Shown in pieces: positions 5,553 through 58,968 of a stretch of 64,000 nucleotides of DNA. The DNA is from Nitrososphaeria archaeon (GTDB lineage Archaea > Thermoproteota > Nitrososphaeria > Nitrososphaerales > JAAOZN01), in the NCBI GenBank assembly GCA_029775855.1, contig JARVJZ010000001.1, forward strand, positions 192,001 to 256,000. Direction: 5' to 3'. Position numbers and translations under genes: made by a program. The stretch's first letter is position 1; each line of letters opens with the position of its first letter. Below the pieces are notes generated by a model. That model was not told the origin of the DNA. It searched no databases and was given only the letters and a program-made list of their open reading frames with translations.

Positions 5553-6140
5553 TCACCCGAGGAACATGACAGGCTCCAGAGCAGGCGGAAGTCGTCTAGA
5601 TAATGTAAGCACCGCACCTTTAGGAGGCTTAAGTTCTATCTTAAACTCAGCATTCGCTCGAAGTTCGTCGTCAACTCCATCATTCTTTAAATTAATGAAG
5701 ACCCTATACTTGTCTCCATATTTAAGGTACATGTCGGTATCAGATGTAAAGACCGGTGTTACAGTAGCTTTAGTTCCATCATAGATGTTGTCTTCATGCT
5801 TGTTTGCGCTTGTCCACGTTATTGCGAGCTTACCTTGAGTTAGATCTACTGGGGACTTGCCTGCTGAAAGTTTTATGATGAAGCTAACGTTATGTAGATA
5901 GGTGGTGTTGCTTTTAGCTATTACAGCTCCATCTATCTCCATAACTGATGATGCTTCTTCTATGCCTGCCGCTATGACTTCTTGGCTCTTTTGTGTTGAT
6001 TGAAATCCTATGTTCAGCACCGTAAAGGCAAATGCTGAGGCGACGATAACGAAGGCGATGAGGATTATTGCTGTCTCTAGACCAGTTAGCCCCTTACGTC
6101 TATGGTTGCATCCCTCTTTTTTAGAGCTTGCTCGCATCAT
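5553..6140 (-). CDS. arlB: Archaellin
   Basis: Class III signal peptide RRKG/LTGLETAIILIAFVIVASAFAF; C-terminal IELKPPKGAVLTLSRRLP. Confidence 0.96.
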   Translation of the reverse strand: MMRASSKKEGCNHRRKGLTGLETAIILIAFVIVASAFAFTVLNIGFQSTQKSQEVIAAGIEEASSVMEIDGAVIAKSNTTYLHNVSFIIKLSAGKSPVDLTQGKLAITWTSANKHEDNIYDGTKATVTPVFTSDTDMYLKYGDKYRVFINLKNDGVDDELRANAEFKIELKPPKGAVLTLSRRLPPALEPVMFLG

Positions 6141-6166
6141 ATCGGTCGGTTGTAGTATAGATATAC

Positions 6167-6207
6167 CATATAAATAAGTTTTATGTCGTATTTAAAACTT
6201 ATATATG
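6167..6207. promoter_or_regulatory. Divergent promoter region with perfect 10-bp inverted repeat ATAAGTTTTA-N9-TAAAACTTAT
   Basis: Arms at 6174-6183 and 6193-6202, extended by CATAT/ATATG; lies between divergent arlB and the V4R-arl operon. Confidence 0.55.
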
Positions 6208-6717
6208 TGTGATATAGATAATGATGATGGGGTAGAAATGCTTGGGCAAATAGCTATGTTAGTAGATAAAGAAAGTTTTATGCAGCGGTCTATACAAGAA
6301 GTTGATTCAAACTATTCAAACAGTAAATTTATTGACACACTACAGACAGTAATACCAAATCTATTAGGACCTATTGGTGCTGCAGTACTTTTTTATCATA
6401 TAGGTGCAAAGTTGGTTGACAACATGTTTGAAGAATGTGCCGGAGACCTACATGAGCTAAAACGCTCAATAATTGTTCTCTTCGCTAAAAATAGTTTCGG
6501 TGTAATAGAGATAGAAGATAACAAATGCCTGAGTCGACTTAACATTTGCACCAAGCCTCTACCATTGGCTGGAAGTAGTTCAATAGGTTGCTACTTTGTT
6601 AGGGGTATCTTCCAAAGGTATCTAAAGCTTGTTAAAGGATTTGATGTAGAAGTTGAGGAAAGTCGTTGCGTATCTAAAGGTAGCCGCTTCTGTGAATTTA
6701 GGGTAAAAGAGGTTTGA
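6205..6717 (+). CDS. V4R domain protein (true start possibly 6238 or later)
   Basis: AAVLFYHIG, FGVIEI, GCYFVRGIF, VEESRCVSKGSRFCEF (Zn ligands C/E/C/C). Confidence 0.85.
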   Translation: MCDIDNDDGVEMLGQIAMLVDKESFMQRSIQEVDSNYSNSKFIDTLQTVIPNLLGPIGAAVLFYHIGAKLVDNMFEECAGDLHELKRSIIVLFAKNSFGVIEIEDNKCLSRLNICTKPLPLAGSSSIGCYFVRGIFQRYLKLVKGFDVEVEESRCVSKGSRFCEFRVKEV

Positions 6718-6723
6718 ACAACT

Positions 6724-7134
6724 TTGAAACAACAAGCTTTAGTTGATGAGATAAAAAGCATTTTAGCTAATCTCAAGGCTGAAGTTGGTGCTGAAATATG
6801 TGCATTATATGACAAGAAAGGACTACTCTTTGGAATCGGCTACCGGGCTGAGGCTGCAATTTTATCAAAAGTCACACAGATAGTCATATCAGCAAATAAT
6901 ATTTTTGAAAGTAGCAGAGTAGGTTGCTTAGAGTCCGCACTTGTTGCAACAGAGCAAGCAGGTATAATTATTAGTAGGGTATTTAATTCACCAACTACAT
7001 ATCTATGCCTAATTCTTCCAAGCAGTGATGTTCTTGGTCTTGCATCACTTGGGGTAAATGCTGCCAGAGTAGAAATTACTTCGTTGTTAAGTAGACTTCT
7101 AGATAAAAAGAGTGAGGGTGAGCATTTACTATGA
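6724..7134 (+). CDS. Roadblock/LC7 (MglB-like) domain protein
   Basis: ILANLKAEVGAEICALYDKKGLL...VGCLESALVATEQAGIII...VLGLASL; size and pattern of a Roadblock fold. Confidence 0.7.
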   Translation: MKQQALVDEIKSILANLKAEVGAEICALYDKKGLLFGIGYRAEAAILSKVTQIVISANNIFESSRVGCLESALVATEQAGIIISRVFNSPTTYLCLILPSSDVLGLASLGVNAARVEITSLLSRLLDKKSEGEHLL

Positions 7135-7769
7135 GCAGCGAAGTTTCCGAGCTAGAGAGGCGAATAAAATCTATTGAAAAAGAGATACAAGAGATCAGAG
7201 AGCCTCTCTATACAACACTCACCGATTTACGCAGCACAATCGCCGAGCTCGAAAACCCATTTAACTATATATCCAAAATGATCGATAGTATCGATCTTAA
7301 AGAGAAAAAAAAGGAAGGCAAAGAAGCTATAGGCAGTATTAAGGTAGGTGAAGCTAAAGACAATAATAAAGATGGTGGTTTAGATGTATCTGCGAAAGAA
7401 TCGTCCTCATCCACCAATTTACACACAGGATTTAAGATGGATTCTGAGCAATGGTATTACCAGTTCAACGTACTTGTTGTCTCAAACCTACTTCTTGAAA
7501 TCTTCGAAAAGGATGAACTTAAGAAGGTTCTTGCAGAGTATGTCAAAGACGGTTGGGTAAGTAGAGAGCTAGCAAAAACTATTGAAGAAGCTGTCGATAA
7601 ACTAACGGTTAATAGAAAAGTCTCACAAATAGACAACGAAGTGTTAGAGTCGCATCTTTTTGCACTATATATCCTCTATAAGCTCTCCAATCAACCTAAT
7701 GATCCAGTTTTGCCTTTTCTACTAATCTTGTTGAATCGCCTAAGACGCGCTAATAATGCTATTAAATAA
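7131..7769 (+). CDS. ArlC/D/E (FlaD/E)-like archaellum accessory protein
   Basis: N-terminal coiled coil ending ELENPF; C-terminal YVKDGWVS and ESHLFALYIL resemble FlaD/E; directly upstream of arlG. Confidence 0.6.
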   Translation: MSSEVSELERRIKSIEKEIQEIREPLYTTLTDLRSTIAELENPFNYISKMIDSIDLKEKKKEGKEAIGSIKVGEAKDNNKDGGLDVSAKESSSSTNLHTGFKMDSEQWYYQFNVLVVSNLLLEIFEKDELKKVLAEYVKDGWVSRELAKTIEEAVDKLTVNRKVSQIDNEVLESHLFALYILYKLSNQPNDPVLPFLLILLNRLRRANNAIK

Positions 7770-7775
7770 GGAGGT

Positions 7776-8279
7776 TTGCTAGAGAAGTTGGCTACAAGCA
7801 GCGTAATTTCCGAAGTTTACATAACATTAGCTGTAGTTATTGCGATTTCCATCTTCTCAGCTACAATCTTTGGGAGCCTACAGAGGGTGGCAGATGCGGA
7901 GAGGGAGAAAACAGTAGATTTGAAGAGAAAGCTGGGTACAAACGTGGAAGTGGTTTTTGCAGCGCAATATAATGCCACTGCAGTTAAAGTGTGGATTAAG
8001 AATACTGGTGTTGAATCAATAAGACCTTCACTTATCAGTTCTAACTCTGATCTCTTCTTCGGTCCACAAGGCTTGTTTACAAGGATAAGTTATAACTCAA
8101 CGTCTCCACCAACTTGGCTCTACATATTAGTAAATGATATGGACAACGACTCGGTATGGGACAGCTCTGAAACCATTGAAATAACTTTGAATAACGGTTC
8201 AATACTGCAGCATGGTGACTACTACATACGATACGTGACATACAATGGTGTTTACAGCGAATATACCTTTACCATCTAA
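7776..8279 (+). CDS. arlG: Archaellum stator protein ArlG
   Basis: ATSSVISEVYITLAVV N-terminus, VWIKNTG, DLFFGP, WDSSETIEI. Confidence 0.85.
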   Translation: MLEKLATSSVISEVYITLAVVIAISIFSATIFGSLQRVADAEREKTVDLKRKLGTNVEVVFAAQYNATAVKVWIKNTGVESIRPSLISSNSDLFFGPQGLFTRISYNSTSPPTWLYILVNDMDNDSVWDSSETIEITLNNGSILQHGDYYIRYVTYNGVYSEYTFTI

Positions 8280-8292
8280 GGAAGGTGGTAAA

Positions 8293-8844
8293 GTGGCTGG
8301 CTTTGCTGGTTTAGCAGCGTTCGTCTTGGCGTCTTTTATTCTCCTATGGGTAAATCTCATAACATTAGAGGAAAGTTATGCGAACTATTCAATAGAAATG
8401 GAAAGTATTTTGAAGAGGATAAAGCTTGAAGCACAAACTGCAAAGGAAGCATATGCTCTCTCTGCAATCAACAAAAGTTTGTCAACAATCTCAGTTAATG
8501 TAACAAATGTTGGTGCAAAGTCGCTGCCAGTTAAGAGCTTCACTTACTGCGATGTTGTGGTCGCCTTCTTTGATCTTAATATAGGTAGCTATTCTTCATA
8601 CTGGCTACCATATGGTAAGCCATCTGATCGCGGATACTGGTATGTTGCAGCAATTTATACTGGCGCGGTTCTAGGAGAGAGCATCAATCCATTTAATTTA
8701 ACGAAATTAACTGGGCATCTTGATCCCGGTGAGACGATGCTTATTATCGCTGTGGTGCCACAAGGTAGTTTAGTTGATGTTGATAGTGCGGTATCTGTGC
8801 TCTTTGTATCGTCTTCTGGTGTTGAGGTGTTGGAGGTTGGGTAG
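8293..8844 (+). CDS. arlF: Archaellum stator protein ArlF (GTG start at 8293 after SD-like GGAAGGTGG; ORF track start 8245)
   Basis: MAGF + TM helix, VNVTNVGAKSL, DVVV, INP....LDPGET. Confidence 0.75.
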   Translation: MAGFAGLAAFVLASFILLWVNLITLEESYANYSIEMESILKRIKLEAQTAKEAYALSAINKSLSTISVNVTNVGAKSLPVKSFTYCDVVVAFFDLNIGSYSSYWLPYGKPSDRGYWYVAAIYTGAVLGESINPFNLTKLTGHLDPGETMLIIAVVPQGSLVDVDSAVSVLFVSSSGVEVLEVG

Positions 8845-9424
8845 TTTCTCTTCTCTTCTTGTTTTTGGTTTAGTATTCTTGCTAATAGTTAACGTAGTTC
8901 CATTAAGCTACTATTTGAATGAGGCTAGATTAGATAAAGGTAAGATACCTTCAGAAATTCTTTTGGTTAACAGCCGGTGCTTCTCGCGTCTCTATTTAAC
9001 AGGCTTCGCAGTAGAACATGGACACAATCTTACTGTCTCAAGAGTTTCTTTTAATGTGACATATTTTGGTGAAAGACCTGTTAGAGCGGCTGAGCTGTGG
9101 TATGCTAACTTGATCACAGCTTATGCACGGATTATTAGTGGTTCCAATGGGGAGCTTAAGATACAACCTACTGTAAAAAGGATACCTTATACAAAGATAC
9201 TATCTTCAGATACGGCGTGGACGATAGATGTTGTTTACGGTGATAATTTAGAACCGTTAAACAAGATGTTAGAGAGCGGAGCGTTAAATAGTGGAGAGAC
9301 CGCATCGATTAGAATCGAATTCGCCTCAGATGATTCACCCTGCTTTAACCCGCAGAGTGCAGGCTACTTCTATGTTCTATTAGACTTCTCTAATGGTGCG
9401 AAAGGGGTTATTTCGATTAAGTGA
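8837..9424 (+). CDS. Second ArlF-like protein (TTG start at 8837; ORF track start 8774)
   Basis: MGSFS + TM helix, FNVTYFGERPV, EPLN....LNSGETASI parallel the preceding ArlF. Confidence 0.6.
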   Translation: MGSFSSLLVFGLVFLLIVNVVPLSYYLNEARLDKGKIPSEILLVNSRCFSRLYLTGFAVEHGHNLTVSRVSFNVTYFGERPVRAAELWYANLITAYARIISGSNGELKIQPTVKRIPYTKILSSDTAWTIDVVYGDNLEPLNKMLESGALNSGETASIRIEFASDDSPCFNPQSAGYFYVLLDFSNGAKGVISIK

Positions 9425-9436
9425 GGTGAAGCATCT

Positions 9437-10147
9437 GTGTCCCAACCTAAGCTCATCAGTTGGTACAATAATGAGCTTCAACAAAAGTTAGGTGAAATCC
9501 CTGTACCGACTTTAATGCTCATCGAAGGTTCTAATGATACTGGTAAGAGTGTGTTTGCTCAGCAGCTGACTTATGGTGCATTGCGCAGCGGTCTGAAGGT
9601 TTCATACATCACGACGGAGAATATGGTTAAAAGTCTTATCTCACAGATGCTAAGCCTTTCTTTTGATGTTCGACAATATTTTCTAAAAGGTGAGTTAAAG
9701 ATATTTCCATTACATGTTGAAAACATCGATTGGAGGGAAGAGATTGCTAATCTTTTCTTAGAAGTTATTTCAAGCTACCTTAACAATAGATGCGCCGCGA
9801 GTGTGGTTATAATAGATTCATTAACCTATATGATAACTTATGCTAATGAAGAAGGTGTCTTAACATTCTTTTCTAGCTTAAGAAACATATGTGATAAGCA
9901 GCGTAAAACAGTGATTCTCACTGTACATCCATATGCATTTTCCCAAGAGCTTCTGATCAGAGTGAGATCGATATGTGATGGGCATCTTATCTTAGAGATC
10001 AAGACTGTTGGTGACAAAATAGTTAGAATGCTTTTTGCCTCTAAGCTTAGAGGTGTTATCGGCGGTTCAGGTTCTGTAATAGTTGCATTTGAAGTCGATC
10101 CAGCTTTTGGAATAAAGGTGATTCCTTATTCGCAGGCTAGGGCGTAA
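9437..10147 (+). CDS. arlH: ArlH KaiC-like ATPase
   Basis: Walker A GSNDTGKS, YITTE, IIDSLT, LTVHP, FEVDPAFGIKVIP. Confidence 0.95.
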   Translation: MSQPKLISWYNNELQQKLGEIPVPTLMLIEGSNDTGKSVFAQQLTYGALRSGLKVSYITTENMVKSLISQMLSLSFDVRQYFLKGELKIFPLHVENIDWREEIANLFLEVISSYLNNRCAASVVIIDSLTYMITYANEEGVLTFFSSLRNICDKQRKTVILTVHPYAFSQELLIRVRSICDGHLILEIKTVGDKIVRMLFASKLRGVIGGSGSVIVAFEVDPAFGIKVIPYSQARA

Positions 10148-10150
10148 AAT

Positions 10151-11869
10151 ATGAGTGCAAACAAGAATATCTTCTACGATTTGCTGCCAACAGACTTTAA
10201 TGAACTTATAAGAATAAAGCTTCACTTAAGACAGTATGTAAGTAAACTTGAAGAAGATCGCATCGACACTCCGTCTTGGTTTTTAACGCTTGACAAGAAG
10301 ATGAATAAAGAAAAAGTTAATCTGATCTATCCTGTCTCTGAAGATGTCTTTATTCACATCCTGCGGCAAGAAGGGATGGAGAGGGCAAGGTATACGATTA
10401 TCGAGCCTACCACGGGTCACGATTTAAGAAATATCGTAAATGTGTTAGAGAATATGTTTGCATTTAAGATGAATGAAGAGCATATATACAGGAATTTAGA
10501 AGAGAAGAAAAAGGTATTAAAGAATCTTATTGATAACACTTTAAAGGTTGATCCGTCGATAAACGAGCTCGCATCATTCCGTGTTGTAGGGAAAGGTAAG
10601 GATTCGATAGTTTTAGTTGGAGAAAAGACAAAAAATCTTCTTGAATATCTGCTCGTGAGAGATAAGATAGGTATAGGTCTACTTGAACCGTTGATAAAGG
10701 ATCCATACATCGAAGATATATCTTTTAACGGTGTTGGTCCTGTATTTGTTGAGCATAAAATCTTCAGCAGCTGCCTCAGCAGTTTAAGGTTTGACGACCC
10801 AGAACTATTAGATGAATATATCAAGAGGTTGGCTGAGCGAGTAGGTCGACCAATAAGCTATAGAAACCCTATCGTGGATGGCACTTTACCAGATGGCTCA
10901 AGAATAAATATCGTGTACGGTAGTGACATCAGCAAACACGGGACGAACTTTACTATTAGGAAGTTTTCTAAAGTGCCCATCAGCATACTTCAACTATGCC
11001 TATGGAACACTATAGGTTATCTTCCAGCGGCTTACCTCTGGATGCTTCTAGAATTCGGGATAAGCGTCTGGGTTTGCGGTGAAACCGCTTCAGGCAAGAC
11101 AACAACCTTAAACGCTCTATGTGCCTTCATAAACCCAACCGCCAAGATTGTTAGCGTCGAGGATACACCAGAGGTCACTGTGCCTCACGAAAACTGGATC
11201 AGAGAGGTTACTAAGGAGAGTGAGGATAGCGAAAGTAAAATCGATCTTTTTGCTTTGCTTAAATCAGCATTAAGGCAGAGGCCGAATTATATCATAGTAG
11301 GTGAGATACGAGGGCGTGAAGGAAATGTGGCTTTCCAAGCCATGCAAACAGGGCACCCCGTTATAGCTACATTCCACGCATCTACTGTGCAAAAACTAAT
11401 TCAACGCCTTACTGGCTCGCCTATTGAAGTTCCTAAAACCTACATAGACAACATAGGTGCTGTGATCATACAGAGTGCTGTAAAAGTTCCTAAGACTGGT
11501 AAGATTGAACGGCGCGTCTTAAGTGTGAATGAAATATTGGGATATGACTCTTTAGAAGACCGTTTCAACTATATCGAAATATTTAATTGGGATCCTCTTA
11601 CAGATACCTTCCTGTTTAGAGGCGAAGGTACAAGCTACCTTCTGGAGAATAAGCTTGCAGTCTTTTATGGCTACTCTAAGCGTGAGGTAAGAGCAATCTA
11701 CAATCATCTACATCTAAGGGCTGAGCTGTTAAAACTCCTTGCAGAGGCTGGTATCACAGATTATTTTGATCTATGGTACACTTTGAAGACGATAAAAGGG
11801 CTTGGAATCGAACGCGCCTTTGAATTGATGCGACAAGGGCGTCTACTGAAGGTGGTAAAGCGTATATGA
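10151..11869 (+). CDS. arlI: ArlI archaellum motor ATPase
   Basis: DPYIEDIS, LPDGSRINI, FTIRKF, GETASGKTT, LRQRPNYIIVGEIRG, QTGH. Confidence 0.96.
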   Translation: MSANKNIFYDLLPTDFNELIRIKLHLRQYVSKLEEDRIDTPSWFLTLDKKMNKEKVNLIYPVSEDVFIHILRQEGMERARYTIIEPTTGHDLRNIVNVLENMFAFKMNEEHIYRNLEEKKKVLKNLIDNTLKVDPSINELASFRVVGKGKDSIVLVGEKTKNLLEYLLVRDKIGIGLLEPLIKDPYIEDISFNGVGPVFVEHKIFSSCLSSLRFDDPELLDEYIKRLAERVGRPISYRNPIVDGTLPDGSRINIVYGSDISKHGTNFTIRKFSKVPISILQLCLWNTIGYLPAAYLWMLLEFGISVWVCGETASGKTTTLNALCAFINPTAKIVSVEDTPEVTVPHENWIREVTKESEDSESKIDLFALLKSALRQRPNYIIVGEIRGREGNVAFQAMQTGHPVIATFHASTVQKLIQRLTGSPIEVPKTYIDNIGAVIIQSAVKVPKTGKIERRVLSVNEILGYDSLEDRFNYIEIFNWDPLTDTFLFRGEGTSYLLENKLAVFYGYSKREVRAIYNHLHLRAELLKLLAEAGITDYFDLWYTLKTIKGLGIERAFELMRQGRLLKVVKRI

Positions 11870-13395
11870 CTCTTAATTTAATAAGCACCGTTGCCCTTAA
11901 AGCCAAGTCAGAAGGTAAAAGTGTAAGAGTTAAAAGTAGAGCCGACTTCCCCCTTCTAATACTACTTTTATATTTGGCTGCTTTCTCAAATCAAGGTTTG
12001 CACTATATTTTAGATGCCCTCAAGAAACCGATTACTCCGCTAAAAGGGTTCGCAACATTATTTATGAAACTCGACATCATGATCAATAAATGGAATTACA
12101 GGCAAGATTACGCGCTACAAATAGCCTCAAATATGAGTGACAACAGAAGCCTCTCACAGTTCTTGCTTAGGTTGTCCCAAGCAATTAATGTGGGCACATC
12201 CTTCAAAGACTTTATGAAGATAGAGTATACAAAGTTTATTATTATAAGTCAGAAGGAGCATCAGATACTAATAGATAAGCTGAGATGGCTTAGTGAAGCT
12301 TACTCCGCAATGATCACAGCTGGAACTGTGCTCTCAGTTTCTATGATTGCTGTTTCAACACTTTTAGGCACAGCTTCAGCTAACCAGAGTTTGCAGCTAA
12401 CTCTTGTTGGGGTTCCCACCGCAGCCTCAGCTTTAGTAGTTCTTATCGCGAGGGCTGGTCTAAAATATGAAACAATAACCGATTTAGACGCTAAACCATA
12501 TAAGTTAACCCTACTCTCAAGATCTGGGAAGATTCTCTTCTTTATCTTAGTCTTTCTCACACCAATCATCTTTTATGTATCTCATTTGTTTGGTAGCAGC
12601 TTTTGGGGTTGGCTTGGTATGGCTATCAGCGGCTTAGCCTTGCTATTATTCGGCAAAATCGCCCTTAGAGAAATAAAACGCATAAAAGGCTTAGAAAATC
12701 AGTTCATGCTCTTTATCAAGGTCTTAGGTGAAGCAGCATCGGCTACCGGCACGCTAAATCAAGGACTTATACTAGTCTCACATAGCGAATTCGGCAAGCT
12801 GTCAAACCACATAAAGAAGCTTGTTTCTAAGCTTACAATAGGGTTTGACAATGAAGTCTCGTGGCTGAATTTTGCAGCTGAAACCGGTAGCAAACTCATC
12901 TCTGATTTTACACAAATACTTCTATTCTCTGTCAAGATAGGCGGAAAGATAATTGAAACATGCCAAACTATATCTGACTGGATGAATGAGGAGCTAAGTA
13001 GAAGAAGTAGGCGTGAACAAGCTTCAAACTACCTAAAAGGTCTGGTCTTTCCTATTCAAGGCACACTCATAGCGATACTGACTATGACAAGTGTGTTAAT
13101 AGAGATCTTTAATAGATTCGCAGCATTCTCTACAAACATTCAAGTAAGGTTCGTGAACCCAATAGATCTTCAGCTACTACTATTCTTCAACTTTATACTT
13201 CTCTTCGCTTTAGCAATAATAAGTGCTTCTGCAATATACTTTACAGAAGGTGGTTCTCTATTTAACCTCTACTATAATTTGGGTCTTCTTCTACTAATCT
13301 CTGGTCTCGGTGTGATTCTTGTCCAAGCCTTTACCTTTAACATTCTAGGCTTGTTTTCAGAACTCGGCTCTAATTTAGGCACGGTGATACCTTGA
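11866..13395 (+). CDS. arlJ: ArlJ archaellum membrane platform
   Basis: Multi-TM protein with two GspF-like domains directly after arlI. Confidence 0.88.
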   Translation: MTLNLISTVALKAKSEGKSVRVKSRADFPLLILLLYLAAFSNQGLHYILDALKKPITPLKGFATLFMKLDIMINKWNYRQDYALQIASNMSDNRSLSQFLLRLSQAINVGTSFKDFMKIEYTKFIIISQKEHQILIDKLRWLSEAYSAMITAGTVLSVSMIAVSTLLGTASANQSLQLTLVGVPTAASALVVLIARAGLKYETITDLDAKPYKLTLLSRSGKILFFILVFLTPIIFYVSHLFGSSFWGWLGMAISGLALLLFGKIALREIKRIKGLENQFMLFIKVLGEAASATGTLNQGLILVSHSEFGKLSNHIKKLVSKLTIGFDNEVSWLNFAAETGSKLISDFTQILLFSVKIGGKIIETCQTISDWMNEELSRRSRREQASNYLKGLVFPIQGTLIAILTMTSVLIEIFNRFAAFSTNIQVRFVNPIDLQLLLFFNFILLFALAIISASAIYFTEGGSLFNLYYNLGLLLLISGLGVILVQAFTFNILGLFSELGSNLGTVIP

Positions 13396-24022: not shown

Positions 24023-24093
24023 TCTAACTACCCTTACTCTAAGTTAGCTGTGAAGACACTACTCTTTAAGCATTTTCCTTAGCAACATGTAAA

Positions 24094-24212
24094 GGCGCCG
24101 GCACCGCCGATTCGCGAAGCCTTGCGGACTTCACTAAAGCGGCGGCGACACACGGTTTGACTTCTGGGTTCGGAATGAGACCAGGTCGGACCCGTGTGCT
24201 ATGGCCGGCTGG
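24094..24212 (-). rRNA. rrf: 5S rRNA (unlinked from 16S/23S); ends approximate
   Basis: Reverse complement GCCGGCCATAGC...CTCATTCCGAACCCAGAAGTCAAACC...GCCGGC with helix I GCCGGC/GCCGGC and the CCGAAC loop. Confidence 0.93.
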
Positions 24213-37626: not shown

Positions 37627-37632
37627 CCAAAA

Positions 37633-37731
37633 TGGTGGACCGGGGGGGATTCGAACCCCCGACCTCCCGCGTGCGAGGCGGGCGTCTGCACCAGCCACAG
37701 CAGACTGCTCATACCACTGAACTACCGGCCC
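37633..37731 (-). tRNA. tRNA-Ala(CGC) with 23-nt intron at non-canonical position 23/24 (37686-37708), CCA encoded
   Basis: Acceptor GGGCCGG/CCGGTCC (G3:U70), anticodon arm CCCGC-CTCGCAC-GCGGG, T arm GGGGG-TTCGAAT-CCCCC; removing the intron restores D stem GTTC/GAAC and gives 76 nt. Confidence 0.94.
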
Positions 37732-37754: not shown

Positions 37755-37830
37755 GAGCGCAACCCAACATATATTCTTCATCCCAGAGGCGTGGTCAGAT
37801 CGCCCGTCGTAACGTTGGGCTGCGCATCTC
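37755..37830 (-). ncRNA. Putative C/D-box-like guide RNA for 16S rRNA C1402 (E. coli numbering)
   Basis: 14-bp terminal stem (37757-37770/37812-37825), guide CGACGGGCG, D box CTGA (37795-37798), C-like GGGATGA (37778-37784). Confidence 0.65.
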
Positions 37831-37965
37831 CCCCTTTTACCCCATTACTATAATCAGTTCAAGCATATTACAGTTACCAAACCCATTCTTCCATCCACCA
37901 CACAAGCACTACTCTATTATAACCATCATAAAAGTTTAATATATTCGCTTAACATACCTACATAA

Positions 37966-38021: not shown

Positions 38022-38333
38022 ATGGGAAAGAGGAAGGTAATCAGCGAAGAAGAGTTAAAAGAAATGGTCTACCCAGGACCAGGAGAAGTACTGGGTAGAG
38101 TAGTTAAAAGACTTGGAAGCGACCTTATGGTAGTAAAATGCGCTGACGGTAAAACCAGAATTGGTAGAATAAGAGGGAAATTGAAGCGCAGAATCTGGGT
38201 AAGAGATAACGACGTAGTTCTCGTCGCACCATGGGACTTTAAAAGTGATGAAAGAGGAGATATAATCTGGCGCTACACCATAGCACAAATAGATATTCTA
38301 AAGTCACAAGGATACCTACCACTCGACCTCTGA
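38022..38333 (+). CDS. eif1a: Translation initiation factor aIF-1A
   Basis: CADGKTRIGRIRGKLKRRIW, APWDF, RGDIIWRY. Confidence 0.96.
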   Translation: MGKRKVISEEELKEMVYPGPGEVLGRVVKRLGSDLMVVKCADGKTRIGRIRGKLKRRIWVRDNDVVLVAPWDFKSDERGDIIWRYTIAQIDILKSQGYLPLDL

Positions 38334-38344
38334 GGCTGAACCCT

Positions 38345-39130
38345 ATGTGGAGCGGAGGCGACGACCTCCCAGAAGAGGTCAAAGAAAGTCTACTTGAGTA
38401 TGAAAAAAAGAGCAGATACCTAATAAAACGCTCAGAAGACCAGCAGGTAATCGAAGACGTCTTTGACAAAGCAACAAAGATGGCCTTATACAAACTCATA
38501 AACAAAGGTGCACTTCAAACACTCATCGGCGTAGTCAAAACAGGGAAAGAATCAAGGGTCTACTGGGGGAAAAAAGCAGACAACACAGACGTAGCAGTAA
38601 AGATTTACCTAACAGTAGCAGCTGACTTTAGAAGAAGACTACCATACATCCAAGGCGACCCAAGATTCACAAATGTCGGTAAAGGAATAAGAAACATAGT
38701 TGAAGTCTGGGCTAAAAAAGAATACCGCAACCTAAGCGAAGCCTACAAAGCGGGCGTCAAAGTGCCGCAACCATTCAACCTAAACAAAAACATACTCGTT
38801 ATGCAGTTCATAGGTGAAGAAGGCAAACCAGCACCCACCCTAAAAGAAGTAGATAAACTGACACAAAAAGACTACCGCAACGTAATAGAGCAGATAACCT
38901 TACTCTACCAGAAGGCTGAGCTCGTGCACGCAGACTTATCCGAATACAACATCTTTAAATGGAGAGATGAAGTAATCCTATTTGACTTCGGCTCAGCAGT
39001 ATCCAGAGAACATCCAAATGCAGACGATTTCCTACAAAGAGATATAGAAAACCTAAACCGCTTCTTCAGCAAAAAAGGAGTTAGAACGCAGCAAACACAA
39101 ACCTTACTCAAAAAAGTGAAAGGCGAATGA
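38345..39130 (+). CDS. rio1: RIO1 serine/threonine kinase
   Basis: TGKESRVY, AVKIY, YIQGDPRF, LVHADLSEYNI. Confidence 0.95.
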   Translation: MWSGGDDLPEEVKESLLEYEKKSRYLIKRSEDQQVIEDVFDKATKMALYKLINKGALQTLIGVVKTGKESRVYWGKKADNTDVAVKIYLTVAADFRRRLPYIQGDPRFTNVGKGIRNIVEVWAKKEYRNLSEAYKAGVKVPQPFNLNKNILVMQFIGEEGKPAPTLKEVDKLTQKDYRNVIEQITLLYQKAELVHADLSEYNIFKWRDEVILFDFGSAVSREHPNADDFLQRDIENLNRFFSKKGVRTQQTQTLLKKVKGE

Positions 39131-39687
39131 CCTTTGAACAAACACTCAAGATCCCCATAGATCGTATAGGCGCACTGCTAGGAAAGCAAGGCTCAACCAA
39201 AGCAGAAATAGAAAAGCTGTGCAACGTATCCATCAACGTAGACAGCAACACAGGTGAAGTAACTGTAAAGATCAAAGGAGCAGTTGAAGAAGCAGAACCA
39301 TTTAAAGCCCTAGCCATAATCAACGCAATAAGCAGAGGTTTCTCACCTCAAAGAGCATTCAAACTTACAAAAGACAACACAACACTAGAAACCATAGATC
39401 TAAGAGAATACGCAGGCAGATCTAAAGACGCATTAACTAGAATAAAGGGCAGAATAATCGGGCAAAACGGCAAAGCAAGGAGAGTGATAGAAGAACTCAC
39501 GAGAACAGAAGTATCAGTATATGGACACACAGTATCCATAATAGGTGAACCAGAAGGCGTTAAGCTTGCCGCGGAGGCTGTAAAGACACTCGCATCAGGA
39601 AGCCAACACAGCACAGTATATCGAATGCTTCAAAGAGCAAGGCAAAAAGCAAAACTTGAGCGCCTAAAACTATGGGAGGAAGAGTGA
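39127..39687 (+). CDS. KH-domain RNA-processing protein (Dim2/Pno1-like)
   Basis: RIGALLGKQG, RGFSPQRA, KGRIIGQNG, GSQHSTVY. Confidence 0.92.
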   Translation: MTFEQTLKIPIDRIGALLGKQGSTKAEIEKLCNVSINVDSNTGEVTVKIKGAVEEAEPFKALAIINAISRGFSPQRAFKLTKDNTTLETIDLREYAGRSKDALTRIKGRIIGQNGKARRVIEELTRTEVSVYGHTVSIIGEPEGVKLAAEAVKTLASGSQHSTVYRMLQRARQKAKLERLKLWEEE

Positions 39688-41310
39688 ATGTCAAAAAGGC
39701 AGACAATCTTCAAAGAAATCTCGCCAAGCGAATTCTTCTACCGAAACCGAGACCTAGCTGGATTCAGCAACCCAAGCAGAGCCCTCTACGCAGCTACCAG
39801 AGAATTGGTCGAAAACGCATTGGATGCTTGTGAAACAGCATGTATACTACCAGACATATTCGTAAGAATAACATCAGCAACCATAGATGGAACATTAGCT
39901 GACCCCAAACCGTATACGCTTAAAGTTCAAGACAACGGTCCTGGCGTAGAGCCAAAATATGTGCCAGACGCATTCGCCCGCATCTTCTACGGAAGCAAGT
40001 TCCAACTTAAGCAGTCAAGAGGCATGTTTGGCATGGGTGCAACGATGGCAATTCTCTATGGGCAAGTCACAACAAACAAACCCGTGTTAGTAACAACCTC
40101 AGTCGATGGTGAGAAAGCATATACATTTGAGATGATGGTCAATATACACGACAATACACCCCTTGTACTGAACAGAACGGTCAAACCAGCTAACGGTAAG
40201 ACAGGCCTATCTGTACAGCTAACATTAGAAGGCGACTACAGCAGATCAGGGTCAAAGATTCAAGAATACTTTAAGCAGACCGCCCTAGTAACACCATACG
40301 CCAACATACTATTCATAGATCCAAATGGCAGACTCTTCTTCTATAGCCGAGCCACCGATAAGATGCCAAAACCAGCAAAAGAGACACTGCCACATCCACT
40401 AGGCATAGACATAGAAGCGCTAAGAAGACTGCTTAAGGAATCTAAAGAGCCCACACTCAAAAAGTTTCTCTCAAAGAACTTCCACAGAGTTGGAGACAAC
40501 ATCGCAGAAGACTTCTTAAAGTTCGCAGGTTTAGACGCAGAAGCAGACCCAAAAAGGTTATCAAACGACGAGATAACCAGATTCGTAAGCGCATTACACT
40601 CATACAAAAACTTTCTACCCCCGGACGCAAGATGCCTATCACCTTTAGGTGAAGAACTCCTTGCAGCTGGCATAGAGAAGGAACTGCAGCCTGAGTTTTT
40701 AGCAGTTATACAAAGACCTCCTTCAGCCTACTCCGGCTTCCCCTTTATAGTTGAAGTTGGTTTAGCGTACGGTGGAAAGGGTGTTGAGCAAGGGTTAAAA
40801 CTGCTAAGGTTCGCAAACAGGATACCCCTTTTATACGACGAAGCGAACGACATATCTTGGAAGGTAGTTAACGAGGAGATAGATTGGAAGAGATATAACA
40901 TACCTCAAGATGCACCACTTACCATCATAACACACGTCTGCTCAACGAAGGTACCATACAAAACAGTAGGAAAAGAATACCTTGCAGACAGACCAGAACT
41001 CGAAAGGGAGCTTAAAAACGGAGTGAGAGAGGTTCTTCGAAGGCTCGGCACATACCTCTCACGCAAAAACACGCTTGCATTCGCTAAAAAGAAAATGAAT
41101 ATCTACGAAAAATACCTACCGCTTATAGCAAGATTCTCAGCCGACCTAATAGGTGCAACAAAGCTTCCAAACTATAAGAAACTACTTAAGAAAAGCGTAG
41201 AAGAAACCGCTGAAAATTTTGAAGAACCTATAGTAGAAGTGGAGAATAAGCCCATTGAAAATAAGGTGGTGAAACTTGAGCAGAGGAGACTCGAAGACTT
41301 TAGCCAGTAG
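39688..41310 (+). CDS. top6B: DNA topoisomerase VI subunit B
   Basis: FFYRN, RELVENALDA, DNGPG, QSRGMFGMG, RFANRIPLLYD. Confidence 0.97.
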   Translation: MSKRQTIFKEISPSEFFYRNRDLAGFSNPSRALYAATRELVENALDACETACILPDIFVRITSATIDGTLADPKPYTLKVQDNGPGVEPKYVPDAFARIFYGSKFQLKQSRGMFGMGATMAILYGQVTTNKPVLVTTSVDGEKAYTFEMMVNIHDNTPLVLNRTVKPANGKTGLSVQLTLEGDYSRSGSKIQEYFKQTALVTPYANILFIDPNGRLFFYSRATDKMPKPAKETLPHPLGIDIEALRRLLKESKEPTLKKFLSKNFHRVGDNIAEDFLKFAGLDAEADPKRLSNDEITRFVSALHSYKNFLPPDARCLSPLGEELLAAGIEKELQPEFLAVIQRPPSAYSGFPFIVEVGLAYGGKGVEQGLKLLRFANRIPLLYDEANDISWKVVNEEIDWKRYNIPQDAPLTIITHVCSTKVPYKTVGKEYLADRPELERELKNGVREVLRRLGTYLSRKNTLAFAKKKMNIYEKYLPLIARFSADLIGATKLPNYKKLLKKSVEETAENFEEPIVEVENKPIENKVVKLEQRRLEDFSQ

Positions 41311-42373
41311 AAGAAAAGCTGAGGTAAAGAAACTGCTACGCCAATTAGGGCAGAAAGTATACGAAGACTTAGAAAAAGAAACCTTTCCAGAAGTAACGTT
41401 AGCAAGCAGATCTGTAAGCAACATAGTGTATGATGAACGGCTTAAACAATATGTTCTCGGACCGAGTAAAACAAGAAGATCAGCCCATAATATCAAGCAC
41501 ATACGTTCATTTACTCAGCTGATCTGGCTTGCCTCATTTGTGAATAAGCTTGTTGAGACATCTAAGACCTCCACACTTAGAGACGTCTTCTATTCCTCTC
41601 AAGCGTATGGTGTAGACTTTAGCGATCAATCTGAATCTGATGAGATCATAACTGATCTAGAGGTTTTACTATCAAAGGCGCGTGAAGACTTCAACGTATA
41701 CCCAGAGGAGCGCTCCGCAATATTCGGGGACTTAACGATAGAATATACTGTGCCTGGATATGAGGGGCGGCGCCTAAATCTAGCATCTCACCCAGATGGA
41801 TACCTTATAGGACCTAGTCTGAGCACTGCAGAGTTTGTGGATACTTCAGCTGAAATGGTTATAGCGGTCGAGAAGGGTGGTCTGTTCACTAGGTTTGTTG
41901 AAGAGAATGTGCATAAGAGGTATAAGGCGTTAATTGTAGATACAGCAGGCCAACCTCCTAGGTCAACACGATACATGCTGAAGCGGTTGAATACAGAGCT
42001 AAAGCTTCCAGTCTACATTCTTGCTGATGGCGATGTTTATGGTGAACACATAGCTATGGTTATAGTTTCAGGCTCTGTGGGCGCTGCTCACCTCCACGAT
42101 CTAACCGTTCCGGACGCTAAGTGGATAGGTGTATGGGGAACCGATATAGTGAAATATCGTCTGCCAAGCGACCCTCTAAGCGAAATCGACATAAAGAGGA
42201 TATATGAATTAAAGAAGGATCCTAGGTATGCAAAAGGCATCTGGCAGCGTGAACTTGACATGTTTCTTAAGATAAAGAGGAAGAGTGAACTAGAGGCGTT
42301 TGCAAAATATGGCTTAACCACAATAGTAGATAAGTATCTCCCTGAGAAGCTGCAGGAGGCAAAGAGCCTTTAA
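41276..42373 (+). CDS. top6A: DNA topoisomerase VI subunit A
   Basis: STLRDVFY (catalytic Tyr), AVEK, GQP, DGDVYG, KSELEA. Confidence 0.97.
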   Translation: MSRGDSKTLASRRKAEVKKLLRQLGQKVYEDLEKETFPEVTLASRSVSNIVYDERLKQYVLGPSKTRRSAHNIKHIRSFTQLIWLASFVNKLVETSKTSTLRDVFYSSQAYGVDFSDQSESDEIITDLEVLLSKAREDFNVYPEERSAIFGDLTIEYTVPGYEGRRLNLASHPDGYLIGPSLSTAEFVDTSAEMVIAVEKGGLFTRFVEENVHKRYKALIVDTAGQPPRSTRYMLKRLNTELKLPVYILADGDVYGEHIAMVIVSGSVGAAHLHDLTVPDAKWIGVWGTDIVKYRLPSDPLSEIDIKRIYELKKDPRYAKGIWQRELDMFLKIKRKSELEAFAKYGLTTIVDKYLPEKLQEAKSL

Positions 42374-49332: not shown

Positions 49333-49734
49333 CTAAGCCCTCCTCCCTCTTCTACCGCCTTTCTTCCTTGTTGTATCGTGTGGAATGGGGGTGACATCTT
49401 CTATTCTGCCTATTTTGAAGCCAGCTCTAGCTAGAGCTCTTATGGCTGCTTGCGCACCTGGTCCTGGTGTTCTAGGTCCTGTTCCTCCTACAGCTCTAAC
49501 TTTGATGTGTATGTTGGTTATGCCCTTTGCTTTGGCGGTTTCGGCTGCTGCGGTTGCTGACTTCATGGCTGCATATGGTGATGATTCGAATCTGTCTGCT
49601 TTGACGTGTCTTCCTCCTGAGCTGAATGCTATGGTTTCTGCGCCGCTTAGGTCTGTTATGTGAACTATTGTGTTGTTGTAGCTGCTGTAGATGTGTGCAA
49701 CGCCCCATTTAGTTGGTTCTTCTTTTTGCGCCAA
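49333..49734 (-). CDS. rps11: 30S ribosomal protein S11
   Basis: [35 protein letters not shown]. Confidence 0.98.
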
Positions 49735-58410: not shown

Positions 58411-58968
58411 TTAAGCCCTCCACCAATCAAAAGTGATAAACTCAACACGCTTTTGAACCACATCCGCAACAGCCAAGATGAACTGCTTCCTCACAGTAGT
58501 AGCTAACCTACCTGATAGAATAATTCTGGTAGCAGTGAGATCTTGGGAAGGTTTGACGACTTCAACAAGATAAGGTGCGTGGTCTATTCCGGGACCATGC
58601 TCATAGACTGCAAAATCACAACCAAACTTGATTCCAGGGCTTACAACTAACCCCGCATCTCTAAGATTTCTATACACCAGATACTTCTCTGGGAATTCAA
58701 TGTACTCAGACTCACAGATCTTCTTTAACATCTTTATACCAACCTTACTATGTAAAGGAGATCGCCTTATTGTAATCCTACCGCGCTCCAAAAGATAGTA
58801 TCCCTCTATTAAATCGAGAACCAAAGGTGCGTTGAATTCAGCGTTTTTAGGCTTAGGTATACCTAACGGCTTACCGTAGAAGCCTTCTTTAAAAAGGGAC
58901 CTTGCATCCTCAATGCTCCAGATGATTATTCTGTTTCCGACAAGCTCTGCGGGTATAGCAGCGCTCAA
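58411..58968 (-). CDS. endA: tRNA-splicing endonuclease, catalytic alpha subunit
   Basis: GIKFGCDFAVY..GPGIDHAPY, RLATTVRK (Y/H/K triad); GFYGKPLGIPKPK loop. Confidence 0.95.
   Translation of the reverse strand: MSAAIPAELVGNRIIIWSIEDARSLFKEGFYGKPLGIPKPKNAEFNAPLVLDLIEGYYLLERGRITIRRSPLHSKVGIKMLKKICESEYIEFPEKYLVYRNLRDAGLVVSPGIKFGCDFAVYEHGPGIDHAPYLVEVVKPSQDLTATRIILSGRLATTVRKQFILAVADVVQKRVEFITFDWWRA

Follow-up and report, generated by a model that had tools for sequence, protein, structure and literature searches.

A conserved hairpin upstream of tRNA-Ala in a Nitrososphaeria archaeon is a candidate stem-capped C/D-type guide for the decoding-centre residue C1402

Introduction

Box C/D guide RNAs are defined by two kink-turn motifs, and the closest described counterpart of the element reported here, in which a plain helix stands at the position of one of them, is man-made. 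BMG1 was engineered from the Sulfolobus solfataricus RNA sR1c by deleting the terminal C/D motif while keeping the terminal stem, and its D′ guide directs methylation when combined with the S. solfataricus proteins L7Ae, Nop5 and fibrillarin (Wang, Yang, Ye 2022, RNA 28:1597, PMC9670817). According to the same article, the stem substitutes for the C/D motif in Nop5 binding, a stem of more than 4 bp is tolerated, and archaeal enzymes accept in vitro an RNA in which a simple stem takes the place of one motif or of both; its authors leave the existence of natural stem guides open and suggest that such RNAs might resemble a primordial form (PMC9670817). The only work that we found citing it in the open-access literature deals with IS110/Nop5 evolution. 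Halfmers with only C′/D′ likewise guide site-specific methylation in vitro (Yang et al. 2020, PMC7229835). That study reports that substrates forming 9-10 bp are modified efficiently and that the two Nop5 domains cap the pairing at 10 nt, and it judges C′/D′-only halfmers unlikely to assemble in eukaryotic cells (PMC7229835).

The residue to which the present element points is itself well described. C1402 lies at the P-site codon and belongs to the small set of rRNA positions that are methylated in bacteria as well as in eukaryotes: it is m4Cm in Escherichia coli, Cm1639 in yeast, where snR70 serves as the guide, and Cm1703 in human (PMC2794176). In yeast without Cm1639, reading-frame maintenance and termination are altered (PMC2794176). 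Among archaea, sR12 of Pyrococcus and Sulfolobus is the predicted guide for the C1402 equivalent and is perhaps related to SNORD43/snR70 (PMC3511168), and Table 4 of PMC2584109 gives the equivalent residue of Haloferax volcanii as lacking methylation. An earlier note on this DNA had named C1402 as a 2′-O-methylation site served by U43/snR70 in eukaryotes, which the literature confirms. In the open-access articles searched, we found no description of a naturally occurring guide whose C/D motif is replaced by a stem, nor of C/D sRNAs in Nitrososphaeria. Here, we analyse a hairpin encoded immediately upstream of tRNA-Ala that combines these two subjects.

Results

Anatomy and predicted fold of the hairpin

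The element spans 69 nt on the minus strand, at positions 37757-37825 of the window (the whole 64-kb stretch of DNA that was analysed; G+C 40-46%). Read 5′ to 3′, it consists of helix, guide, CUGA, loop, GAUGA, linker and helix, with the following parts:

37812..37825, minus strand: 5′ strand of the terminal helix (14 bp here, with the outer 12 bp kept in relatives)
37799-37811, minus strand: 13-nt spacer upstream of CUGA, as read from the sequence
37799..37809, minus strand: 11-nt guide block (positions 11 to 1 upstream of the D′-like box; 11/11 columns invariant)
37795..37798, minus strand: D′-like box CUGA (4/4 invariant)
37785..37794, minus strand: inter-box loop (invariant CC at its start and CU at its end, variable middle)
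37778..37784, minus strand: C′-like box GGGAUGA (GAUGA at 37782-37778)
37771..37777, minus strand: 3′ spacer (7 nt here, 9-10 nt in relatives, variable in sequence)
37757..37770, minus strand: 3′ strand of the terminal helix, pairing with 37812..37825

A 14-bp stem enclosing a spacer, CUGA, a loop, GGGAUGA and a second spacer is what the earlier note had described, and all of these parts are present on the minus strand; its span of 37755-37830 contains the element but was drawn slightly too wide, running past the helix by 5 nt at the upstream end and by 2 nt at the downstream end. The hairpin has a minimum free energy of -29.4 kcal/mol (z = -3.6), with 1/200 shuffles as stable, the z-scores for the three species that carry it are -3.6, -3.3 and -3.2, and the terminal helix dominates the predicted fold. 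In two of the three single folds, and weakly in RNAalifold, the GGGCG of the guide pairs with the loop. We rejected this inner hairpin as a true structure, because the loop sequence varies between species.

Judging from the box consensus in PMC9670817, we infer that CUGA and GAUGA can form a K-loop with G.A/A.G, U.U and G-C pairs. The first base of the C′-like box is G, whereas the consensus has U. The inter-box loop measures 11-12 nt across the three species, and the 3′ spacer, on the sequence evidence, reads as a linker rather than as a second guide. The arrangement as a whole is rare. Both strands of 614,620 b (the window plus 36 related loci, described below) contain 93 CUGA...GAUGA motifs, only four of which have a correctly placed flanking helix of at least 9 bp, namely the three orthologues and one ORF-internal case. 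The latter, in locus L004, was discarded as a further copy since its spacer measures 8 nt and the ORF that contains it encodes 401 aa.

Conservation in relatives

To survey relatives, the neighbouring aIF-1A gene was used as an anchor, with one genome per species, which yielded 36 loci from Nitrososphaeria, Conexivisphaerales and Bathyarchaeia. The element is present in two of them (L001 and L002), both times ahead of the same tRNA-Ala. These are the two nearest loci; one of the MAGs bears the label Nitrososphaerales (97% identity) and the other Nitrosopumilales (94%), which makes the host a thaumarchaeon in the broad sense. Within up to 10 kb of aIF-1A at the other 34 loci, which belong to more distant Nitrososphaeria and to Bathyarchaeia, tRNA-Ala and the element are absent. 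All conservation counts given here therefore refer to three sequences (window, L001 and L002) of close kin, with an intergenic identity of ~82%.

Within this set, conservation is sharply focused. The guide, CUGA and the following CC are invariant in 17/17 columns, and CUGG with GAUGA in 9/9, together 26/26 columns in three species; a lack of such conservation in relatives would, by the earlier note, have refuted the guide reading. The other unpaired parts drift: invariant columns number 0/4 in the 5′ linker, 0/7 in the loop core and 4/10 in the 3′ spacer. An unchanged single-stranded block beside CUGA is a guide-like pattern.

The helix is likewise maintained. Twelve pairs are retained in all three species (36/36 cells paired), with one compensatory C-G to U-A change and two GC/GU switches, and sliding the helix partners by 1-3 columns lowers the pairing to 28-44% of cells. 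RNAalifold recovers the same helix from the three-species alignment. The covariation is not significant, as 158/500 shuffles equal the observed score with three sequences, so that the case for the helix depends chiefly on thermodynamics and full retention. Hence, of the covariation upstream of tRNA-Ala that the earlier note had proposed to look for, the pairing is kept in full but the covariation signal falls short of significance.

With a covariance model built from the element, the minus strand reaches 90-95 bits, but the plus strand only 22-23 bits, because the G.U pairs are broken there. A coding reading was rejected, as the overlapping ORFs differ in frame and in stops among the three species. 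The strand-biased model score and the lack of a common reading frame together indicate a minus-strand RNA. Run over the window and the 36 loci, the model finds the three orthologues only and no further copies or paralogues; its other five matches reach at most 13.4 bits, with E of at least 2.5. Nine-nucleotide matches to the guide or its complement occur in L012 and L032, without boxes.

Three close relatives and a non-significant covariation signal would also suit a functionless chance hairpin with box-like words, kept only by close kinship. However, the non-coding surroundings are invariant in just 30/78 columns of the upstream flank and 8/25 columns of the spacer to the tRNA, against 26/26 for guide and boxes. 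Moreover, the build recurs elsewhere in 614,620 b only once, inside the ORF mentioned above. We thus regard chance as very unlikely: the element is a real, conserved and structured RNA gene fused to tRNA-Ala.

Linkage to tRNA-Ala and the transcription unit

The surroundings of the element contain the following features:

37865..37870, minus strand: TAATAT, in a 14-nt block kept in three species; first TATA-box candidate
37848..37853, minus strand: TTATAG, second promoter candidate, 22 nt upstream of the helix
37732..37756, minus strand: 25-nt spacer between hairpin and tRNA, with no run of four or more T and 8/25 columns invariant
37633..37731, minus strand: tRNA-Ala(CGC), 52.8 bits in Rfam, with encoded CCA
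37629..37632, minus strand: T-run (TTTT) right after the tRNA, candidate terminator

The tRNA reads as alanine-specific from its CGC in the anticodon loop and its G3:U70 pair. Its fold reveals an intron, a 22-nt hairpin between the D arm and the anticodon arm, and it is because this intron lies outside the anticodon loop that ARAGORN mislabels the gene. The tRNA begins 25 nt after the helix, on the same strand, in agreement with the distance of ~24 nt given in the earlier note, and the interval from hairpin to tRNA is 21-25 nt in all three genomes. In L002, a 401-aa gene has come to lie between the element and aIF-1A, and hairpin and tRNA are still joined.

Either AT-rich block could be the TATA box. 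TTATAG is conserved as (T/A)TATAG in 3/3 species, but its distance to the helix is uneven (22 nt in the window, 14 nt in L002 and 24 nt in the remaining species), which makes its promoter role uncertain. As for a separate conserved promoter of the tRNA, the sole AT-rich candidate, the hairpin's own 3′ spacer, has diverged in L002. Co-transcription of the sRNA with the tRNA is suggested by the linkage kept in L002, by the absence of a T-run between them and by the lack of a conserved tRNA promoter, and a single transcript carrying both would be the simplest reading of the sequence. In the predicted fold of the whole precursor, hairpin and tRNA form independent modules.

The same linkage raises the question of whether the hairpin is simply a structured 5′ leader of pre-tRNA-Ala that acts in processing, stability or regulation, for example by binding L7Ae or a factor related to RNase P, and does not guide methylation at all. 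Its fusion to the tRNA in 3/3 genomes, 21-25 nt upstream, and the missing separate tRNA promoter would suit such a role, and L7Ae binds many archaeal K-turns that do not belong to guides (PMC5539422, PMC6298567). Yet a leader would leave unexplained why 11 unpaired nucleotides beside CUGA are invariant while the other unpaired stretches drift, and why the fifth of them is in register with a known methylation site; we consider it unlikely.

Relation to known classes of guide RNA

Where a canonical archaeal C/D sRNA has terminal C and D boxes, the element has a Watson-Crick helix of 12-14 bp, and the three-way alignment contains neither a conserved C box upstream nor a conserved D box downstream. 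A scan with the full C/D sRNA pattern returned five weak matches in the window, none of them at the element, and the strict canonical pattern had no match in the window plus 36 loci (614,620 b). With its terminal boxes missing and the pattern scans passing it by, the element was rejected as a canonical C/D sRNA. Its spacers differ, too: those of archaeal C/D RNAs measure ~12 nt (PMC9670817), and here the 5′ spacer has 13-15 nt and the 3′ spacer 7-10 nt. No family of Rfam 15, the curated C/D models included, matched at gathering score, the best lax match being sR60 with 10.5 bits (gathering 50; E = 4), and the SNORD43/snR70/sR12 clan CL00059 gave no match at E <=10 in scans of 801 nt and of 96 nt.

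What the element does possess is the internal pair of boxes, with CUGA and GAUGA invariant in 3/3 species and 11-12 nt apart. The single D′/C′-type pair, with a helix where the terminal C/D motif belongs, is thus borne out by the sequence and by the relatives, as the earlier note had maintained. This is the architecture of BMG1-type guides. Their terminal duplex of at least 4 bp has its counterpart in the 12-14 bp helix, whose pairing is retained in 3/3 species, and their coupling of C′/D′ to a 5′ guide in the invariance of guide plus CUGA (15/15 columns) and of GAUGA (5/5). BMG1 and the element share a stem at the site of the C/D kink-turn, an intact C′/D′ motif, a 5′ spacer coupled to D′, and the form of a closed RNA with two spacers; BMG1 targets the position paired to the fifth nucleotide upstream, and position 5 of the element faces C1402 on the E. 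coli proxy used below. They also differ in several respects. BMG1 is man-made, with a 4-bp stem and two 12-nt spacers that both guide, whereas the element is a natural, predicted guide fused to a tRNA, with a stem of 12-14 bp and with only its 5′ spacer (13-15 nt) conserved, the 3′ spacer being a variable linker of 7-10 nt. On balance, it is probably a natural variant of the known guide class, with a stem standing in for the C/D motif.

A single hairpin with a K-loop-like apex might also be taken for an atypical H/ACA-like pseudouridylation guide, whose pocket would be the internal loop, the more so as atypical H/ACA RNAs whose bulges form K-turns occur in Nanoarchaeum equitans and Pyrobaculum (PMC3491384). 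However, there is no ACA behind the helix, where the three species read UCUAG, UUCAG and UUCAG. Furthermore, the 3′ side of the internal loop, which would form one strand of the pocket, is unconserved (4/10), the conserved strand runs directly into CUGA, as the guide of a C/D RNA does, and pocket and K-loop are not separated by an upper stem. We therefore rejected an H/ACA guide, which appears highly improbable.

Predicted target of the guide

Neither the window nor the 36 loci contains rRNA from which the organism's own 16S or 23S could be taken, and the guide was compared with E. coli K-12 rrsH as a proxy. On this sequence, guide positions 3-10 pair with 16S 1400-1407, so that position 5 faces C1402, the register of SNORD43/snR70/sR12 as far as the E. 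coli proxy alone can tell; position 1 also pairs (with A1398), and positions 2, 11 and 12 are mismatched. The duplex comprises eight contiguous pairs on the proxy and would comprise nine if position 1408 were G. In archaea, this position is A or G (PMC4644070; 2024 bioRxiv preprint), and a G would provide the ninth pair and explain the conserved guide position 11.

How much such a match means was gauged by shuffling. Eight contiguous pairs including position 5 were reached on E. coli 16S+23S by 1025/5000 shuffled guides, and nine pairs by 260/5000. At a chance rate of ~20%, complementarity by itself is weak evidence, and what lends weight to the target assignment is that the guide is invariant and that the site is a known site of methylation. 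The earlier note had proposed that the guide matches small-subunit rRNA with its fifth base on C1402; the register holds on E. coli rrsH, but the complementarity does not exceed chance (1025/5000). Overall, C1402 is a plausible target. As a target it is not new for archaea; what is new is the architecture of the RNA.

Given how often an eight-pair rRNA match arises in shuffles (1025/5000), a fibrillarin guide of the same build could serve another target, such as the 23S helix 38 region or a tRNA. The invariant C at guide position 11, unpaired opposite A1408 of the proxy, would fit this idea, and with G.U allowed, guide positions 3-13 pair with E. coli 23S 959-971. Nevertheless, the 23S pairing depends on two G.U pairs, including the one at position 5, and falls in a region whose sequence is not universally conserved. 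Moreover, the three species differ at guide positions 12-13, which argues against selection for this pairing. Position 11 would find its explanation in a ninth 16S pair if the archaeal residue at 1408 is G, and the 16S site is methylated in two domains of life and predicted to be so in archaea. As for tRNAs, the adjacent tRNA-Ala offers six contiguous pairs, and none of the RNA genes within the window pairs with the guide over seven or more. A different target thus seems rather unlikely.

The same 16S complementarity would be expected of an RNA that acts as a chaperone of folding or assembly, or as a checkpoint, on the decoding-centre strand of nascent 16S without any methylation, and an RNA-based checkpoint near 1405-1415 has been proposed for N. 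equitans sR13. The genomic setting is suggestive in this regard, with aIF-1A, Rio1 kinase, a Dim2-like KH protein and topoisomerase VI B and A encoded next to the element on the plus strand, and Rio1 and Dim2 being late small-subunit maturation factors. However, the adjacency to Rio1 and Dim2 is broken in L002, and a chaperone could do without an N+5 register that falls precisely on a residue methylated elsewhere. We hold this to be quite improbable.

Discussion

The hairpin described here, which is short, devoid of terminal boxes and joined to a tRNA, is best explained, with somewhat better than even confidence, as a C/D (fibrillarin)-type guide for C1402 in an unusual build, which would form the 5′ part of a tRNA-Ala(CGC) precursor. 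This reading draws on the invariant guide and boxes, the retained helix, the strand bias, the N+5 register, the BMG1 precedent and the linkage to the tRNA. Several observations weigh against it, namely that only three close sequences are available, that the covariation is not significant and that the complementarity amounts to eight pairs on an E. coli proxy, and further that the C′-like box has G for U, that the 3′ spacer is 7-10 nt long and that the guide pairs with the loop in 2/3 folds. Finally, 614,620 b contain no canonical C/D sRNA, and Rfam offers no C/D match. Genes for fibrillarin, Nop5 and L7Ae do not occur within the 64-kb window; to our knowledge, all three are near-universal in archaea, and we assume that the host lineage uses C/D guides.

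The anatomy, the conservation, the tRNA linkage and the register on the proxy, all of them observed, allow a course of events to be proposed. Transcription from an upstream promoter would yield a precursor with the hairpin followed by tRNA-Ala(CGC). Cleavage by RNase P at the 5′ end of the tRNA would release the hairpin, and trimming would halt at the helix. The D′/C′ pair would then fold into a K-loop and be bound by L7Ae and, subsequently, by the C-terminal domain of one Nop5, while the helix of 12-14 bp might dock on the second Nop5 of the dimer, in a BMG1-like manner, or might merely cap and stabilise the ends. The 11-nt spacer 5′ of CUGA would pair with the top of 16S helix 44 (1400-1407, perhaps 1408), and fibrillarin would methylate the 2′-OH opposite guide position 5, which is C1402. 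The invariant 11-nt block is close to the 10-nt limit that Nop5 sets on pairing.

Set beside other guides, the element combines traits that have so far been seen apart. It resembles sR12, SNORD43/U43 and snR70 in its predicted role as a guide for the C1402 equivalent, but these are canonical RNAs with terminal C and D boxes, which the element lacks. With halfmers it shares the single box pair and the single guide. Human C/D-like snoRNAs represent the opposite reduction, as they keep the terminal C/D motif without C′/D′, whereas the element keeps only the internal-type pair. Finally, the dicistronic tRNA-sRNA genes of N. equitans (and of plants) place guide and tRNA in one precursor (PMC3491384), as we propose here. 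In N. equitans, however, the tRNA comes first and RNase Z frees an sRNA that has full C/D and C′/D′ boxes (PMC3491384), whereas in the present unit the sRNA comes first, would be freed by RNase P and has D′/C′ only.

A tentative further step, which we regard as slightly less probable than its opposite, is that the element, located in a tRNA leader and serving Cm1402, represents the first methylation guide from nature to use a plain helix in the role of the terminal C/D kink-turn. If so, the engineered BMG1 would have a counterpart in living cells, which would mean that archaeal Nop5-fibrillarin uses stem-anchored guides in vivo. Cm1402, made by a protein enzyme in bacteria and by way of U43/snR70 in eukaryotes, would here depend on a stem-capped guide. 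Searches that rely on four boxes will miss guides of this kind, which may matter for lineages such as Nitrososphaeria; were the build usual there, it would explain why canonical C/D sRNAs went unseen in 614 kb. For a class defined by two kink-turn motifs, a natural candidate of 69 nt provides a concrete object for testing, and its interest lies mainly in being a natural test case for stem-anchored guides.

Intron-bearing tRNA genes

The tRNA-Ala(CGC) gene downstream of the predicted stem-capped methylation-guide hairpin carries a 22-nt hairpin intron that separates the D arm from the anticodon arm and thus lies outside the anticodon loop. This intron is present in all three species, namely that of the window and those of the two related aIF-1A loci (L001 and L002), with a loop sequence that varies among them. 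ARAGORN miscalled the gene, returning either '???' or Ser, and made no call at all for a second, 104-nt tRNA in the window, which presumably also bears an intron. The window further encodes a tRNA-splicing endonuclease in which both the N- and the C-terminal domains are present, a gene that bears on the unusual tRNA introns found within the same stretch.

tRNA-related genes
37633-37731, minus: tRNA-Ala(CGC) (L001, 1777-1872; L002, 894-992)
3941-4044, plus: second tRNA, 104 nt (Rfam, 60.3 bits)
58411-58968, minus: tRNA-splicing endonuclease

Guide-loop pairing and the search for canonical C/D sRNAs

Within the hairpin, base pairs can form between the GGGCG part of the guide (37799-37809, minus strand) and the 3′ half of the inter-box loop (37785-37790). 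Such pairing, of 4-5 bp, is possible in each of the three species despite their species-specific loop sequences, and is seen in two of the three MFE folds; it might reflect self-masking of the guide, or else chance.

Requiring strict C and D boxes and allowing at most one mismatch per internal box, we found no canonical four-box C/D sRNA in the window and 36 aIF-1A loci from Nitrososphaeria, Conexivisphaerales and Bathyarchaeia (614,620 b), which suggests that such guides are either rare in the sampled lineages or differently built. A weak C/D-like word pattern with three box mismatches, located inside the gene for ribosomal protein S11 on the antisense strand, is probably due to chance.

49578-49625, plus: weak C/D-like word pattern

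Genomic surroundings

Elsewhere, the window holds a stand-alone 5S rRNA gene, with neither 16S nor 23S rRNA genes within its 64 kb, and an archaellum cluster comprising two archaellin genes, a KaiC-like ATPase, a FlaI-type ATPase, a FlaJ-type membrane protein and several ORFs without a Pfam match.

5553-13395: archaellum gene cluster
24093-24212, minus: 5S rRNA gene (65.5 bits)
38022-42373, plus: aIF-1A, Rio1 kinase, Dim2/Pno1-like KH protein, topoisomerase VI B and A

In the window, the sRNA-tRNA unit formed by the hairpin and tRNA-Ala(CGC) adjoins the last of these gene groups in divergent orientation; in L002, a 401-aa gene is interposed between the unit and its aIF-1A-side neighbours. Rio1 and Dim2 are late-acting factors in the maturation of the small subunit, and the small-subunit particle is common to their action and to the predicted contact of the guide.
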